From an uncultured Mycoplasma sp. (lineage in GTDB: Bacteria > Bacillota_I > Bacilli_A > RF39 > UBA660), in contig CAZTRE010000005.1 in the NCBI GenBank assembly GCA_964616405.1, positions 1-51,703 on the forward strand: 51,703 nucleotides of DNA, read 5' to 3'. The translations under genes and the position numbers were made by a program. This document shows positions 5,201 to 49,551 of the stretch, piece by piece. The number at the start of each line of letters is the position of its first letter. The first letter of the stretch is position 1. Under the pieces are notes generated by a model, which searched no databases, was not told the origin of the DNA, and saw only the letters and a list, made by a program, of their open reading frames with translations.

Positions 5201-6031
5201 ATGTCAATAACAATTACAGATATACTAACCATTATTAGAAAATTATGTGATATATTTTTAGTTTGGTTTGTATTTTATTATATTTTAAAAAATATTAAAA
5301 ATAATGTTAAGCTTTCTATGTTATTTAAGGGAGTAGCTTTTATAATAATTTTAAAACTTGTCAGTGATAAATGTGGATTTGTTACAATAGGTGTTTTACT
5401 TGATTATATTATTCAATGGGGTCCTATTGCATTAATTGTTATTTTTCAACCTGAAATTAGAAATGTTCTTGAACAATTAGGTCGTACTCAGTTACTTGGA
5501 CGTCATAAGGTGTTAACAGTTGATGAACGTGAAAGAATGGTTTATGAAATGATTAATGCTATCGATTATTTAAGAAAAGAAAGAATAGGTGCATTAATAG
5601 TAATTGAAAGAGATATCAGTTTAGGAAATTATATTGATAAAGCTAAAAAATTATATGCAGATTTAACTAGTGATTTATTAATTGCTATATTTTATGAGGG
5701 TAATCCATTACATGATGGAGGAGTTATTATCCAAGGTGATAGAATTACGTGTGCTGGAGCAGTTTTCCCAACTAGCAATAGTCCAAAATTAAATAAGAGA
5801 TTAGGTACTCGTCATAGAGCGGCATTAGGATTAGCAGAAGAAACTGATGCAATTTGTATTGTTGTTTCTGAAGAGACTGGTAGAGTATCAATTGCTGTAA
5901 AAGGTGAAATGCTTTATAATTTAACACTTGATGATGTTAGAATGATGTTAATAGATGAGTTAAAACCAAAACAAGACGTAGAATTTGAAGAAGATGAAGA
6001 AGAGGAAGATATATATGAAGAAGATATTTAA
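5201..6031 (+). CDS. cdaA: diadenylate cyclase CdaA (DisA_N/DAC domain, three N-terminal TM helices)
   Basis: DGGVIIQGDRITCAGAVFP ... RLGTRHRAALGLAEETDAICIVVSEETGRVSIA. Unusually acidic C-terminal tail (EFEEDEEEEDIYEEDI). Confidence 0.92.
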   Translation: MSITITDILTIIRKLCDIFLVWFVFYYILKNIKNNVKLSMLFKGVAFIIILKLVSDKCGFVTIGVLLDYIIQWGPIALIVIFQPEIRNVLEQLGRTQLLGRHKVLTVDERERMVYEMINAIDYLRKERIGALIVIERDISLGNYIDKAKKLYADLTSDLLIAIFYEGNPLHDGGVIIQGDRITCAGAVFPTSNSPKLNKRLGTRHRAALGLAEETDAICIVVSEETGRVSIAVKGEMLYNLTLDDVRMMLIDELKPKQDVEFEEDEEEEDIYEEDI

Positions 6032-45587: not shown

Positions 45588-46190
45588 TTACTTGTTGTAG
45601 AATTCAACGATTAATGCTTCATTGATATCAGCATTAAGTTCATTTCTTTCAGGGAGTCTAACGAATGTTGCTTCTTTTTTATTTTCATCATAAGTAATGA
45701 ATTCAACTCTCTTAGTTGTTTTTTCTAATGATTCGTTAACAACTTTTAGGTTTTTATCATCTTCTTTTAATGAAATAACGTCTCCAACTTTAACTCTATA
45801 TGAAGGAATATCAACTTTTTTACCATTAACAGTAACGTGTCCGTGGTTAACAAGTTGTCTAGCTCCACGACGAGTAGTTGAGAAACCAATGCGGTATACT
45901 AAGTTATCTAAACGTGATTCTAATAATCTTAAGAAGTTAGTACCATGAATACCTTGCATTTTTCCAGCCTCTAAGAAAGTTTTGTGGAATTGTTTTTCAT
46001 TAACTCCATACATAAAACGAACTTTTTGTTTTTCTTTTAATTGATTACCATAGTCAGATGGTTTACCTTTACGAGCATTACCATGTTGACCTGGACCATA
46101 TGGACGTTTAGCTAATTCTTTACCTGTTTCACTAATTGAGAATCCAACACGACGAGCTTGTTTATAAGCTGGACCTGTATATCTTGCCAT
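45588..46190 (-). CDS. rpsD: 30S ribosomal protein S4
   Basis: [19 protein letters not shown]... plus the S4 RNA-binding domain ([28 protein letters not shown]). 200 aa. Confidence 0.97.
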
Positions 46191-46349
46191 AATTAATTTC
46201 TCCTTTCTCTGTATTACAAATCAATGAAATGAATTAGTCGTATCTTAGGGAGTTTTTCTTATCGTTTCGCATAAACAGCTACTGTTACTAAGCTAATATG
46301 TGAAAAACACTTTAAAATACTCTAATTCCGCTGTTTCAAGGAATTTGCA
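46191..46349 (-). promoter_or_regulatory. long rpsD 5' leader, candidate S4 autoregulatory element
   Basis: ~160 nt lie between the consensus promoter and the rpsD ATG. It contains AACAG-tag-CTGTT, and a second AAACAG competes for the same CTGTTT. Confidence 0.4.
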
Positions 46350-46355
46350 TTTTTA

Positions 46356-46384
46356 ATTATATGTTAAAAGTGTTGATATGTCAA
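46356..46384 (-). promoter_or_regulatory. consensus sigma-A promoter of rpsD
   Basis: On the minus strand: TTGACA (46384-46379), exactly 17 nt, TATAAT (46361-46356). Confidence 0.75.
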
Positions 46385-46430
46385 GGGTCTTGTGAATTTT
46401 ATTCGTAAACACTTGGTAATCAGTTACAAT

Positions 46431-46456
46431 ATAAAAGAGAAACAAATCTGTTTCTC
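46431..46456 (-). terminator. terminator of the alpha-CTD-like operon
   Basis: GAGAAACA-gatt-TGTTTCTC stem followed (minus strand) by TTTTAT. Confidence 0.7.
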
Positions 46457-46460
46457 CATA

Positions 46461-46625
46461 TTAAATATTTGTTTGTTTTAATTCATCTTTTTGTAAAAGA
46501 AGCTCTTTCTTTTGAATGTTTAATTTTATAATTTCATTTTGATTTTTGATTTTTTTAATTTCTTCTTCTAGATCATTAATTTCAGCATCTAAATGTGTAA
46601 TTATTTTAATTTGATTTTCTACCAT
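46461..46625 (-). CDS. 54-aa coiled-coil mini-protein, absent from the ORF track; overlaps the 3' end of the upstream ORF in another frame
   Basis: MVENQIKIITHLDAEINDLEEEIKKIKNQNEIIKLNIQKKELLLQKDELKQTNI. GAAGG lies 8 nt upstream of the ATG. The terminator follows immediately. Confidence 0.45.
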   Translation of the reverse strand: MVENQIKIITHLDAEINDLEEEIKKIKNQNEIIKLNIQKKELLLQKDELKQTNI

Positions 46626-47031
46626 GAGGAATACCTTCTTTCAAATTATTTACTGTAGAGACAATTTTTTTATCTAAGGCAGTTTCTTGCGCTAATAGGG
46701 CTTGTCTTTCAACCATTAATTGGTTGTATTTTTCTATCAATTGTTCTTTTCGTTGAATTCGGTTTTTAATAGCATCATTTTCTATTTGAGCTTGTAGAAC
46801 CATAGCCTCAGTTGGTCTAAAAGTAACGTCTGGTCGATTGGCTGTTTTTATCTGGGCTTCTGCAGGTTGTTTAAATTCTAATTCCATATTTTGCATTAGG
46901 GCAAGTATTTTTTGTTGTCTTAAGGGACCCATTCCATTTAGTTGTAGAACATCAGGGCCAAAGTTTACTAAATCTTCGATTGTGTATATGCCATTTTGAT
47001 ATAATAATTTAGATAATCTACTATTTTGCAA
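46606..47031 (-). CDS. protein with one RNA polymerase alpha-CTD-like HhH module plus a coiled coil (TTG start)
   Basis: SRLSKLLYQNGIYTIEDLVNFGPDVLQLNGMGPLRQQKILALM resembles the RpoA CTD. The C-terminal half is heptad-rich. Confidence 0.55.
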   Translation of the reverse strand: MQNSRLSKLLYQNGIYTIEDLVNFGPDVLQLNGMGPLRQQKILALMQNMELEFKQPAEAQIKTANRPDVTFRPTEAMVLQAQIENDAIKNRIQRKEQLIEKYNQLMVERQALLAQETALDKKIVSTVNNLKEGIPHGRKSN

Positions 47032-47070
47032 ATATTCCTCTAATAAATCTACTCCATTAGCTTTTAGTTT

Positions 47071-47574
47071 TTATGTAACTTCGTCTATTGATGGTTCTTC
47101 ATTTTTTAGTGTATAACCCAAACTATGAACATAGTCTTTTAACAGTTGTATTCTTTCTGTGCCAAGATTTCGTGATATTGCGAGAGCTCTATAATCGTGA
47201 TCTACTAAATCACCAAAAGTGAAAACTCCACTGTGTTTTAGAACTGTTTTTATAGCCGTAGGAAGATCTAAGGCATCAATTTTAATTAAACCAATATCTT
47301 GGGGTATTCCCATATTTTCAAATTCATTTTTAAAAGTTACACCATAATCATAATGTAATAGTTTTTCAAGTTCTCTTAAAGCGAAAGGTTTTAGATAGTC
47401 TTCGTGAGTGCCAGATCTTTTTTTACTTGGTTCAAAAATATTGATTATTTTCTCTTTTTTTTCATTGATTAAGTCATTTAGTGTGATGTAGCCCATATCC
47501 TTTAGACTTTCTTTTGTATCATCACTTAAATCTAAGTATTTAATTAAAATTTCTGTTGGTTGTATATTACTCAT
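47071..47574 (-). CDS. protein with two RNA polymerase alpha-CTD-like HhH modules
   Basis: AGGAGG RBS. LDLSDDTKESLKDMGYITLNDLI and IDALDLPTAIKTVLKHSGVFTFGDLVDHDYRALAISRNLGTERIQLLKDYVHSLGY. Confidence 0.65.
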   Translation of the reverse strand: MSNIQPTEILIKYLDLSDDTKESLKDMGYITLNDLINEKKEKIINIFEPSKKRSGTHEDYLKPFALRELEKLLHYDYGVTFKNEFENMGIPQDIGLIKIDALDLPTAIKTVLKHSGVFTFGDLVDHDYRALAISRNLGTERIQLLKDYVHSLGYTLKNEEPSIDEVT

Positions 47575-47838
47575 TTTTACCTCCTGATTATTTGTATAAT
47601 AAATTAGGTTCTGTTTATGTTCTTATACTATTTTAGTGTATCATGTGTGGTTGTTTTTTTCTATATTTATAAATATAAAAACAATAATTTGACATTTTAG
47701 ACAAATTTTAATTTATTTATTTGTTTTATAGCTTTTTTTAATTTCTTTATAGTAGGAAGGAAATATTTATAAAAAATGTAGAAATATGTTGTATAAATGT
47801 GATAGAATATGATTAGAATTGAGAATAGAGGTGAGAAT

Positions 47839-49551
47839 ATGGAAGGACAATATCTTATTATTGGATCAGTAGCTATTGTTGTGGTTATTGTTGTTTTAAT
47901 TATTCTTCACTTTATTAAGGATGCACGACTAAAGTATTATCGTGAAAAAATTAAAAATTTGGAAGTACAGAGAAATTTAGTTGCCTCTACTCCTGTTTTA
48001 TTAGAGTTATCAAAAGTAGAACCTATTATTAAAAATGATAAAATGGAAGAAAAGTACAATAAATGGCAAGATAGATTTTCATATATTAGAGAACGTCGTT
48101 TGGCTGTTATAGACGATATGTTAATTGATTTAGATGTTTTTATGGATAAACGTGATTATAAAACTTGTACTATTAACATTGCCAAAGTAGAAATTGAAAT
48201 ATATAAAGCTAGAGAGTCAGCAGAAAGATTGTTAGACGAAATTAAAGATATTACTCTTAGTGAAGAAAAGTATCGAGCTATTGTAATTAAGCTTAAAACT
48301 AAATATCGTAATTTAAATAAAGAGTTTTTAGATCATAAACAATTGTATGAGTCTATGCAAGAAGCTATTAGTTTACAACTTGATAATATTGAGAGTAAAT
48401 TCTTAGATTTTGAAAAAGTCATGGAAAAGAATGAATATAGTGAAGTTGTTCATATCGTTAAAGCGCTTGATGCAATGATTGAGCATATGGATATTATTAT
48501 TAAAGAAGTTCCTGATGTTTTATTAATGGCTAATCAAGTAATTCCTAATCGAATGAAGGAAGTAAATTTAACTTATAAAGATATGCTTAATCAGGGATTT
48601 CCATTGGATTATTTAAATATTGAATATAATTTGGAAGAAACTAGTAAAAATATTGAGGCTATTTTGGATAGGGTTAAAATACTTAACTTAGAAGGAGCAA
48701 TGTTTGATTTAAAAACGATGCTTGAATATTTTGATTCATTATTTATTGATTTTGAGAAGGAAAGACTATCAAGAAAAGTATTTGAAGAAGTTAATACTGA
48801 TTTTAAGAAGAAAATTGAAAAAACTAATAAACTAGTAAGTGATGTTTATGATCAACTTGATGATATTAAAAATATGTATGATTTGGAAGATCAAGATATT
48901 GAAATAATTCATGAAGTTAATAAAGTATTAATTGTGATAAATGATGATTATAAAAAATTATTATCTAAAGTTGAAGCTGGAGCTACACCTTATTCAATGT
49001 TAAATGAAGAGATTGAAAACTTAACATTGAGACTTGCTTCAATGGAAGAAGAATTTGATAAGGCTCTAAAGTCACTTGGTAATATGTATGAAGATGAAGT
49101 TCGGGCTAGGGAACAATTAGAAGAAATTCAAGAATTTTTAAAACAATGTAAGACAAAAATGCGGACTTATAAATTGCCAGTTATAACAGATAATTATTTT
49201 GTACAATTGTCTGAGGCAAATGAAGCAATAGTTGAAGTTATAAAAGAGCTAGAGAAAAAACCAATTGAAATTAAAGTGTTAAATACACGTGTTGATACAG
49301 CTAGAGATTTAGTTTTAAAACTTTATAATACAACTAATGAAATGATTAAGACAGCACAGCTTGCTGAAATGTCTATTGTATATGGTAATAGATATCGTAT
49401 GAGTTATCCGGAAGTTGATAAAGGTTTATTTGACGCAGAAATTCAATTTTTTAAGGGTAATTATAAAGCTGCTTTAGATATTTCAATAAAATCTACGGCG
49501 TTAGTAGATGAGGATATTTATAAAAAATTATTACGCGTATATGATAAGTAA
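47839..49551 (+). CDS. ezrA: septation ring formation regulator EzrA
   Basis: N-terminal TM helix followed by ~540 aa of spectrin-like coiled coil. The size and the position upstream of thiI match Bacillus. Confidence 0.85.
   Translation: MEGQYLIIGSVAIVVVIVVLIILHFIKDARLKYYREKIKNLEVQRNLVASTPVLLELSKVEPIIKNDKMEEKYNKWQDRFSYIRERRLAVIDDMLIDLDVFMDKRDYKTCTINIAKVEIEIYKARESAERLLDEIKDITLSEEKYRAIVIKLKTKYRNLNKEFLDHKQLYESMQEAISLQLDNIESKFLDFEKVMEKNEYSEVVHIVKALDAMIEHMDIIIKEVPDVLLMANQVIPNRMKEVNLTYKDMLNQGFPLDYLNIEYNLEETSKNIEAILDRVKILNLEGAMFDLKTMLEYFDSLFIDFEKERLSRKVFEEVNTDFKKKIEKTNKLVSDVYDQLDDIKNMYDLEDQDIEIIHEVNKVLIVINDDYKKLLSKVEAGATPYSMLNEEIENLTLRLASMEEEFDKALKSLGNMYEDEVRAREQLEEIQEFLKQCKTKMRTYKLPVITDNYFVQLSEANEAIVEVIKELEKKPIEIKVLNTRVDTARDLVLKLYNTTNEMIKTAQLAEMSIVYGNRYRMSYPEVDKGLFDAEIQFFKGNYKAALDISIKSTALVDEDIYKKLLRVYDK

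Follow-up and report, generated by a model that had tools for sequence, protein, structure and literature searches.

An accessory cassette between ezrA and rpsD of an uncultured bacterium holds one interrupted gene for alpha-CTD-like modules and a small overlapping partner gene

The window analyzed here is a whole contig of 51,703 nucleotides (CAZTRE010000005.1 of assembly GCA_964616405.1, from an uncultured bacterium of the RF39 lineage), and the element under study is a group of three open reading frames (ORFs), A, B, and C, that lies on its minus strand between the ezrA and rpsD genes. A reading made from the letters of the DNA and without database searches (hereafter the sequence-only reading) had described this group as an operon of coiled coils and of modules resembling the C-terminal domain (CTD) of the RNA polymerase (RNAP) alpha subunit, interrupted by an in-frame TAA codon and a switch of frame. 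When the sequence was read again, the 3 ORFs were found at the coordinates given then, all on the minus strand, and the TAA codon was indeed in the frame of ORF B, followed by 13 sense codons that contain no in-frame ATG or GTG. Likewise, ORF C starts within the last codons of ORF B in another frame. From the comparisons described below we conclude, with very little doubt, that ORFs A and B are one gene, that ORF C is a separate conserved gene, and that the cassette formed by them is an insertion. The following features make up the locus:

approx. 46410..47760, minus strand: accessory cassette of about 1.35 kb, within the divergent ezrA-rpsD spacer
47580..47585, minus strand: Shine-Dalgarno sequence AGGAGG of the large gene, 5 nt ahead of the ATG of ORF A at 47574 (read from the sequence)
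46606..47574, minus strand: large gene of 322 codon positions, broken at codon 168, ortholog of the undivided proteins P0001-P0055 (307-341 aa)
47071..47574, minus strand: ORF A, 167 aa, ATG start, the 5' piece of the large gene, holding modules D1 and D2
about 47341..47559, minus strand: alpha-CTD-like module D1, in ORF A, matched by PF03118
about 47101..47310, minus strand: alpha-CTD-like module D2, in ORF A, matched by PF03118
47071..47073, minus strand: premature TAA at codon 168, in the predicted helix joining D2 to D3 (placed by codon-level alignment)
47032..47070, minus strand: 13 sense codons KLKANGVDLLEEY, untranslated, encoding the first conserved segment of D3
46606..47031, minus strand: ORF B, 141 aa, TTG start, the 3' piece of the large gene
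47031 to about 46870, minus strand: remainder of module D3, in ORF B
47031, minus strand: candidate restart TTG, with GAGGA upstream at 5-nt spacing
about 46636..46809, minus strand: predicted C-terminal helix of about 58 residues, in ORF B (transferred from helix 266-323 of the P0001 model)
C-terminal end of ORF B, minus strand: native tail KEGIPHGRKSN
46634..46638, minus strand: Shine-Dalgarno sequence GAAGG of ORF C, inside conserved K-E-G codons of the large gene
46461..46625, minus strand: ORF C, 54 aa, ATG start, gene of a putative helical (coiled-coil) partner, sharing 20 nt with the 3' end of the large gene
46427..46457, minus strand: intrinsic terminator, with a stem-loop at 46457..46436 (9-bp stem, 4-nt loop) followed by a T run, forming the end of the cassette

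The unit is thus bracketed, as had been noted before, by one strong ribosome-binding site and one terminator. Terminator-like sites are more frequent in this region than expected (3 against 0.5), and a promoter scan found no consensus sigma-70 promoter upstream of ORF A. The GC content of the cassette (27.5%) is close to that of the window (28.5%) and shows no compositional anomaly. Because the flanks are AT-rich, the edges of the cassette are accurate to about +/-25 nt.

To understand how the ORFs belong together, we compared them with related proteins. A search with a conceptual fusion of A, B, and C returned 6 proteins of 273 to 330 aa that share 43% to 49% identity with it and span A, the gap, and B, but not C. 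In the alignment of the close members (alignment A1), all 6 are unbroken across the TAA site and end at ...KEGxxHGRK, which is the end of ORF B, and the 25 diverse full-length members of a second alignment (alignment A4, 288-341 aa) are all unbroken at this site as well. A hidden Markov model (HMM) search that covered 1.84 billion representatives gave 413 matches at E<=1e-3, 51 of them at E<=1e-30; the matches P0032 and P0036 are ORF A and ORF B of the window itself, annotated as separate proteins. With the unnamed family P0001-P0055 (about 300-340 aa, from uncultured gut Bacilli), the segment formed by A, the gap, and B is co-linear at 44% to 52% identity, and the window copy alone has a premature TAA at codon 168.

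At the lesion, the codons of the window are GTT ACA TAA AAA CTA and those of the closest relative (L001) are GTA TTA GAA AAA TTA, while codon-level alignment places a CAA of L006 where the window has TAA. Among the relatives, the codon at this position is GAA, CAA, ACT/ACA, GAT, GCC, or AAT, in a column of A1 that is variable, and the residue in the codon 168 column of the 31 aligned relatives is E, T, Q, K, D, A, or N. Because relatives carry GAA or CAA there, one base change explains the TAA. The codons of the gap retain all 7 family-invariant residues (L170, G174, V175, L177, L178, E179, and E180 in A1), and no second stop or frameshift was found in the 322 codon positions of the large gene; for these 2 reasons, the lesion is either recent or not real. 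The window gene is therefore a broken family member, in which every part is present and co-linear and the ORF is cut at codon 168.

ORF C is a gene of its own. A small ORF of 49 to 56 aa overlaps the end of the large gene by 14 to 20 nt in 8 of 8 loci (L001, L004, L005, L006, L090, L091, L094, and the window), and its relative frame is identical in all of them. The overlap measures 20 nt in the window and in L090 and 14 or 17 nt in the other 5 measured loci; in the window, the large gene is 2 codons longer (SN), which results in the 20-nt overlap. The ATG of ORF C overlaps conserved H/N-G codons of the large gene, and the arrangement aaagaagg...ATG/TTG was present in the 7 loci checked for it. 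Conservation of the small protein exceeds that of the large one: orthologs of ORF C are 70% to 79% identical where the large protein is 44% to 52% identical, and the small protein can still be recognized at loci whose large protein shares no more than about 30% identity with that of the window. The KEG..GRK tail and the overlapping small gene are accordingly features that the window has in common with the P0001-P0055 family. By this comparison of sequences, the switch of frame between B and C is a translational-coupling overlap that belongs to the design of the family, and not a frameshift lesion. It had been suggested that relatives might all carry the same 3 separate ORFs, in which case the split would be a design; this was found for the split between B and C but not for that between A and B, which is a disruption.

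The resemblance of the modules to the alpha-CTD, which the sequence-only reading had noticed, was borne out by Pfam, a profile search of the PDB, structure prediction, Foldseek, and profile-profile comparison. ORF A matched PF03118 in 2 stretches with E = 2.8e-9 and a score of 37 bits, against a cut-off of 23.8 bits, and the family profile matched solved RpoA CTDs through each of the 3 modules. The third module, which had been proposed to lie in ORF B, was matched via profiles only: positions 167-231 of the family profile matched RpoA CTDs with E = 1e-3, and in the comparison of the modules with one another (hhalign) D3 was paired with D2 at 94% probability (E = 1.5e-7) and with D1 at 83%, next to 97% (E = 3e-11) for D1 and D2. 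An AlphaFold2 model was made for the ortholog P0001 with 25 family sequences, and not for the window's own protein. This model, with a mean predicted local distance difference test score (pLDDT) of 85.5, contains the alpha-CTD or helix-hairpin-helix (HhH) fold that the sequence-only reading had expected a predicted structure to reveal. It has helical modules at about 8-75, 88-152, and 160-230, a low-confidence stretch at 237-263 that is presumably a disordered linker, and a long helix at 266-323; D1 bears an inserted beta-hairpin and is without the second hairpin signature. When the model was compared with known structures using Foldseek, the top PDB matches were RNAP alpha chains or isolated alpha-CTDs, among them the CTDs of E. 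coli, B. subtilis, and Caulobacter. Target TM-scores ranged from 0.78 to 0.91 for isolated CTD chains, with best root-mean-square deviations of 1.0-1.3 A over 64-68 residues. Altogether, these comparisons support a large protein predicted to consist of 3 homologous alpha-CTD-like (HhH)2 modules, a disordered linker, a long amphipathic C-terminal helix, and a short basic tail.

The surroundings of the cassette indicate that it was inserted. Using the adjacent RpsD protein as query against GTDB species representatives, we collected 80 loci from metagenome-assembled genomes (MAGs) of uncultured gut Bacilli, with RpsD identities of up to 91% and NCBI labels that include uncultured Bacilli, Tenericutes, Mollicutes, or Erysipelotrichaceae bacterium, Clostridium sp. 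CAG:710, and Candidatus Coprosoma. None of the 80 related rpsD loci encodes the large or the small cassette protein, which agrees with the earlier remark that no such gene normally belongs to the rpsD-ezrA order and makes the unit foreign to this neighborhood. In the closest relatives (EzrA 71% to 76% identical), ezrA and rpsD are divergent and 248 to 296 nt apart, as against 1618 nt in the window. Starting at ezrA, the spacer of these relatives can be aligned with the window as far as about 47755-47772, and the alignment resumes at about 46400, immediately ahead of the -35 box of rpsD; because homology breaks and resumes at these positions, the insert measures about 1.35 kb. In other genomes that carry the cassette, its housekeeping neighbors are different each time.

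A search for repeats flanking the cassette as insertion scars returned AT-rich chance matches only, none of them convincing. The large protein had no match in PHROG, the core family had none on viral contigs, and PADLOC gave weak domain-level matches to PglW only, which indicates no phage or defence origin. Neither a transposase or integrase, nor terminal repeats, nor phage or defence content was found that would make the cassette a mobile element. Other genes have settled at the same place: the ezrA-rpsD spacer of 12 of 37 related loci holds unrelated genes of 0.8 to 2.6 kb (for example, in L010, L028, L030, L041, L043, L048, L058, L060, L061, L062, and L067), and several of these inserts encode mutually similar proteins of about 290 aa. 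Because 12 of the 37 loci carry other genes there, this spacer is a recurrent insertion site.

What the stop codon means is a separate question. We incline, at somewhat better than even chances, to the view that the TAA at codon 168 is a genuine and recent nonsense mutation in a dispensable accessory gene. Its consequence would be a fragment of 167 aa comprising D1 and D2, with little or nothing made of D3 and the coiled-coil part, and the translational coupling between the large gene and ORF C would largely be lost. Some observations weigh against a genuine mutation that simply silences the gene. Near-identical sequences were not found in GTDB representatives, in exact look-ups of ORFs A and C, or in JGI metagenome contigs, and because no second copy was found, a real mutation and a consensus or base-call error are not distinguishable. 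Specifically, a cluster look-up placed ORFs A and B on this contig only, a scan of GTDB species representatives with the family pattern gave 112 pattern matches and no relative, alignment A4 was too diverse to offer a conserved stretch for such a scan, and among the JGI metagenome contigs a single distant relative (30% identity) turned up, but no copy from the same species. In addition, a Shine-Dalgarno-like GAGGA and an in-frame TTG lie 13 codons past the stop. Comparable internal restart sites occur once per 431 codons in the window, so that the chance of such a site is about 3%, a figure judged post hoc. Together with the intactness of ORF B, the GAGGA/TTG site might point to a split that the cell tolerates or has adapted to.

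An intact gene that merely appears to be broken, because the T at 47073 stems from an error in base calling, assembly, or consensus or from a variant strain, is an unlikely explanation, although a single base different from GAA or CAA would account for everything, there is no second lesion, and conservation is perfect on either side of the stop. The window is moreover the whole of a 51,703-bp NCBI contig that probably stems from a MAG, and the nearest relatives are all MAGs from animal and human guts. However, the site is not one of a homopolymer-length error, and substitution errors are uncommon in short-read consensus sequences.

That the cell lives with the split or has adapted to it, making A as a free D1-D2 protein and B by reinitiation at the TTG at 47031 and so producing 3 small proteins, appears rather improbable to us. 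The restart site itself argues for such an arrangement: GAGGA, a 5-nt spacer, and TTG stand 13 codons after the stop, the GAG and TTG of the window replace GAA and TTT/ATT of the relatives, and ORF B has no further lesions. Stand-alone proteins also exist that resemble A (P0066, 158 aa, on 4 contigs and without D3 downstream) and B (P0118, 139 aa, with an ATG start). However, no relative is split at the TAA site, the about 3% figure was calculated after the site had been seen, and a B protein started at TTG would be without GVDLLEEY, the first segment of D3, which the natural B-like proteins P0118 and P0073 keep. The 7 invariant residues in the untranslated gap are all kept, which argues that the stop is too young for adaptation.

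Programmed readthrough or recoding, which would yield the full-length protein from the TAA-containing mRNA and which the sequence-only reading had suggested, is very improbable. In its favor, the reading frame continues past the TAA and what lies beyond is undamaged. Against it, a stop at this position is absent from all 31 relatives in the alignments (6 close, 25 diverse), and recoding sites are normally conserved. Furthermore, the genes of the window use TAA with a following A more often than any other terminator context: the stops of its 45 long ORFs include 31 TAA, of which 20 are followed by A. No suppressor tRNA was found within the window, and a search of Rfam with 46100..47900 gave no match, nor was any other structure found at the TAA site. 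Finally, a single A+B+C protein of about 370 aa broken by a nonsense codon and a frameshift, as the contiguity of the 3 ORFs between one ribosome-binding site and one terminator had suggested, can practically be dismissed, because, of its 2 proposed lesions, only the nonsense codon stands (relatives are unbroken across the site) and the frameshift falls: B has its native C-terminus, the large protein ends at ...HGRK in all relatives exactly as B does, in the relatives the small ORF stands apart in another frame, where it has a Shine-Dalgarno sequence and a start codon (ATG or TTG) of its own, and no such protein is among the fusion-search and HMM matches.

We also considered genetic code 4, in which TGA encodes Trp. 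This was rejected: no real gene has an in-frame TGA, and the interrupting codon is TAA in any case. TGA ends none of the 45 ORFs of at least 120 aa in the window (TAA ends 31 and TAG 14), so that in this genome of 28.5% GC it seems to serve neither as a stop nor as a sense codon.

For the intact module, we tentatively propose a function that we consider possible but more doubtful than not: several alpha-CTD-like modules, held together as an array by a coiled coil, would bind DNA or partners in transcription. The targets of the HhH modules would be AT-rich DNA or transcription partners, much as the alpha-CTDs of RNAP bind UP elements, sigma region 4, and activators. The C-terminal helix would pair as a coiled coil with the small protein, or with itself, and this coiled coil would gather several weak HhH modules into one particle. 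A hint for the coiled coil is that each of the 2 helices carries a conserved Asn, N276 of the large protein being near-invariant in A4 and N30 of the small protein invariant in its alignment (A8). A further, indirect hint to function comes from distant alpha-CTD arrays that are fused to Sigma70 region 4, Spo0A_C, or an SF2 helicase; such partners sit beside the alpha-CTD at promoters.

To see which residues of the alpha-CTD are kept, the modules were aligned to the E. coli CTD, whose numbering was checked. The signature residues of the fold are retained (L260/L262, G279-D280-L281, N294, and G296 in E. coli numbering). At the positions of R265, N268, G296, K298, and S299, the window has D, E, K, F, and A in D1, A, T, G, E, and R in D2, and R, K, G, L, and R in D3, so that the '265 determinant' survives only at G296 of D2 and D3 and at R265 of D3. 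Across the family, 15 of 26 members, the window among them, have a basic residue (K or R) at the R265 position of D3, and G296 is present in D3 of 24 of the 26. Several of these and other observations speak against the proposed function. The canonical DNA-binding determinant is not kept in D1 or D2, which in the window have D and A, respectively, in place of R265; the K298 position is non-basic in all 3 modules of the window and mostly so across the family; and the large protein is acidic (pI 5.7). Because gene neighborhoods are not conserved, the context gives no functional clue either. A role in binding proteins would be equally compatible with the acidic charge and with the poor conservation of the R265/K298 determinant.

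More specifically, the 2 proteins might form an undescribed transcription module of small-genome gut Bacilli, in which a free triple alpha-CTD array, oligomerized through a coiled coil with its 50-aa partner, would occupy UP-element-like AT-rich DNA or capture sigma region 4 or regulators that bind the alpha-CTD, and would in this way compete with or substitute for the alpha-CTD of the polymerase. Competition with or mimicry of the RNAP alpha-CTD had also been raised in the sequence-only reading; it may occur, but no support for it was found. We regard the detailed version given here as improbable; if it were true, the window would show a natural knockout or a natural split of such a module.

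Comparison with known systems sets the large protein apart from each of them. With the alpha-CTD of RpoA (PF03118), it shares the (HhH)2 fold and the signature L-x-L...GDL...N-x-G, and D3 shares with it the basic R265 position and G296. In contrast to RpoA, it is without the alpha N-terminal domain, and only the C-terminal about 70 positions of the NCBIfam rpoA models match it, with 40 bits against cut-offs of 228-523. Because no alpha N-terminal domain is attached, the large protein is not an RNAP subunit. It differs further from the alpha-CTD in having 3 tandem copies followed by a coiled coil, and in the '265 determinant' for UP-element DNA, which is absent from D1 and D2 and partly kept in D3.

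The AR1 and AR2 repeats of NusA are tandem acidic (HhH)2 modules that serve as protein-protein interaction domains in transcription, and the window protein resembles them in its tandem modules and its acidity. However, these repeats belong to a larger factor that binds RNA, and they are accompanied by neither a coiled coil nor a small partner; neither the PDB profile search nor Foldseek returned a NusA match. Phage alpha-CTD proteins of 105 to 140 aa gave the best viral structural matches and are likewise free alpha-CTD-like modules outside RpoA. Both these phage proteins and the distant arrays match by the domain only (E about 1e-8 to 1e-14), and they are without the coiled coil, GRK tail, or small partner of the window family. 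The distant arrays (P0119, P0124, P0125, P0135, P0142, P0148, P0063, and P0166-P0175), which do not occur in the window, have 2 to 11 alpha-CTD modules fused to Sigma70 region 4, to three Spo0A_C domains, to an SF2 helicase, or to TPR. As far as we found, this wider class of alpha-CTD arrays and the phage alpha-CTD proteins are uncharacterized. The region 3001..4311 of L087 contains a two-module (D1-D2) protein of the P0066 type (158 aa), which occurs on 4 contigs and is followed by neither D3 nor a coiled coil; beside it in L087 lies a methyltransferase gene that is apparently split into ORFs of 78 and 172 aa.

The core family had no name in the sources searched, Pfam and NCBIfam held no curated family model for it beyond the domain, and we found no description of it in the literature on alpha-CTD-like, RpoA-like, or PF03118 proteins. 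The (HhH)2 domain of the alpha-CTD is thus known, and what is undescribed is the module of a triple alpha-CTD protein with a small partner. For annotation, the locus should be entered as one interrupted gene and one small gene, and not as 3 ORFs or a recoding site. The switch of frame is ordinary, a normal coupling overlap, and on the reading that we favor, of a nonsense mutation in an accessory gene, the stop is ordinary as well, a lesion of one base. Of lasting interest is the rare two-gene module itself, with 3 copies of the RNAP domain that reads UP elements and contacts activators. If the module does bind promoter-upstream DNA or partners of the alpha-CTD, it would represent a new type of modulator of transcription in poorly known, uncultured gut Bacilli and would provide a working model for the arrays fused to sigma region 4, Spo0A_C, and helicase. 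The natural truncation seen here and the stand-alone A-like and B-like proteins mark domain boundaries that can be used in experiments.

The genes that flank the cassette gave minor observations. Within 46190..46384 on the minus strand, the rpsD gene has a perfect promoter, TTGACA-17-TATAAT (46384..46356), and a 5' leader of about 165 nt that is conserved across 11 related genomes, among them L007, L009, L012-L017, L022, and L023, where it lies at about 5838..6003. A long-range helix in this leader shows compensatory changes in 13 of 26 predicted pairs. The leader has no match in Rfam and probably serves autoregulation by S4, as an element still missing from that database. On the other side of the cassette, the ezrA ORF is listed from the ATG at 47809, and alignment with relatives suggests a start at the second ATG at 47839 (MEGQ...), after a GAGGTGA ribosome-binding site (47809..47841).

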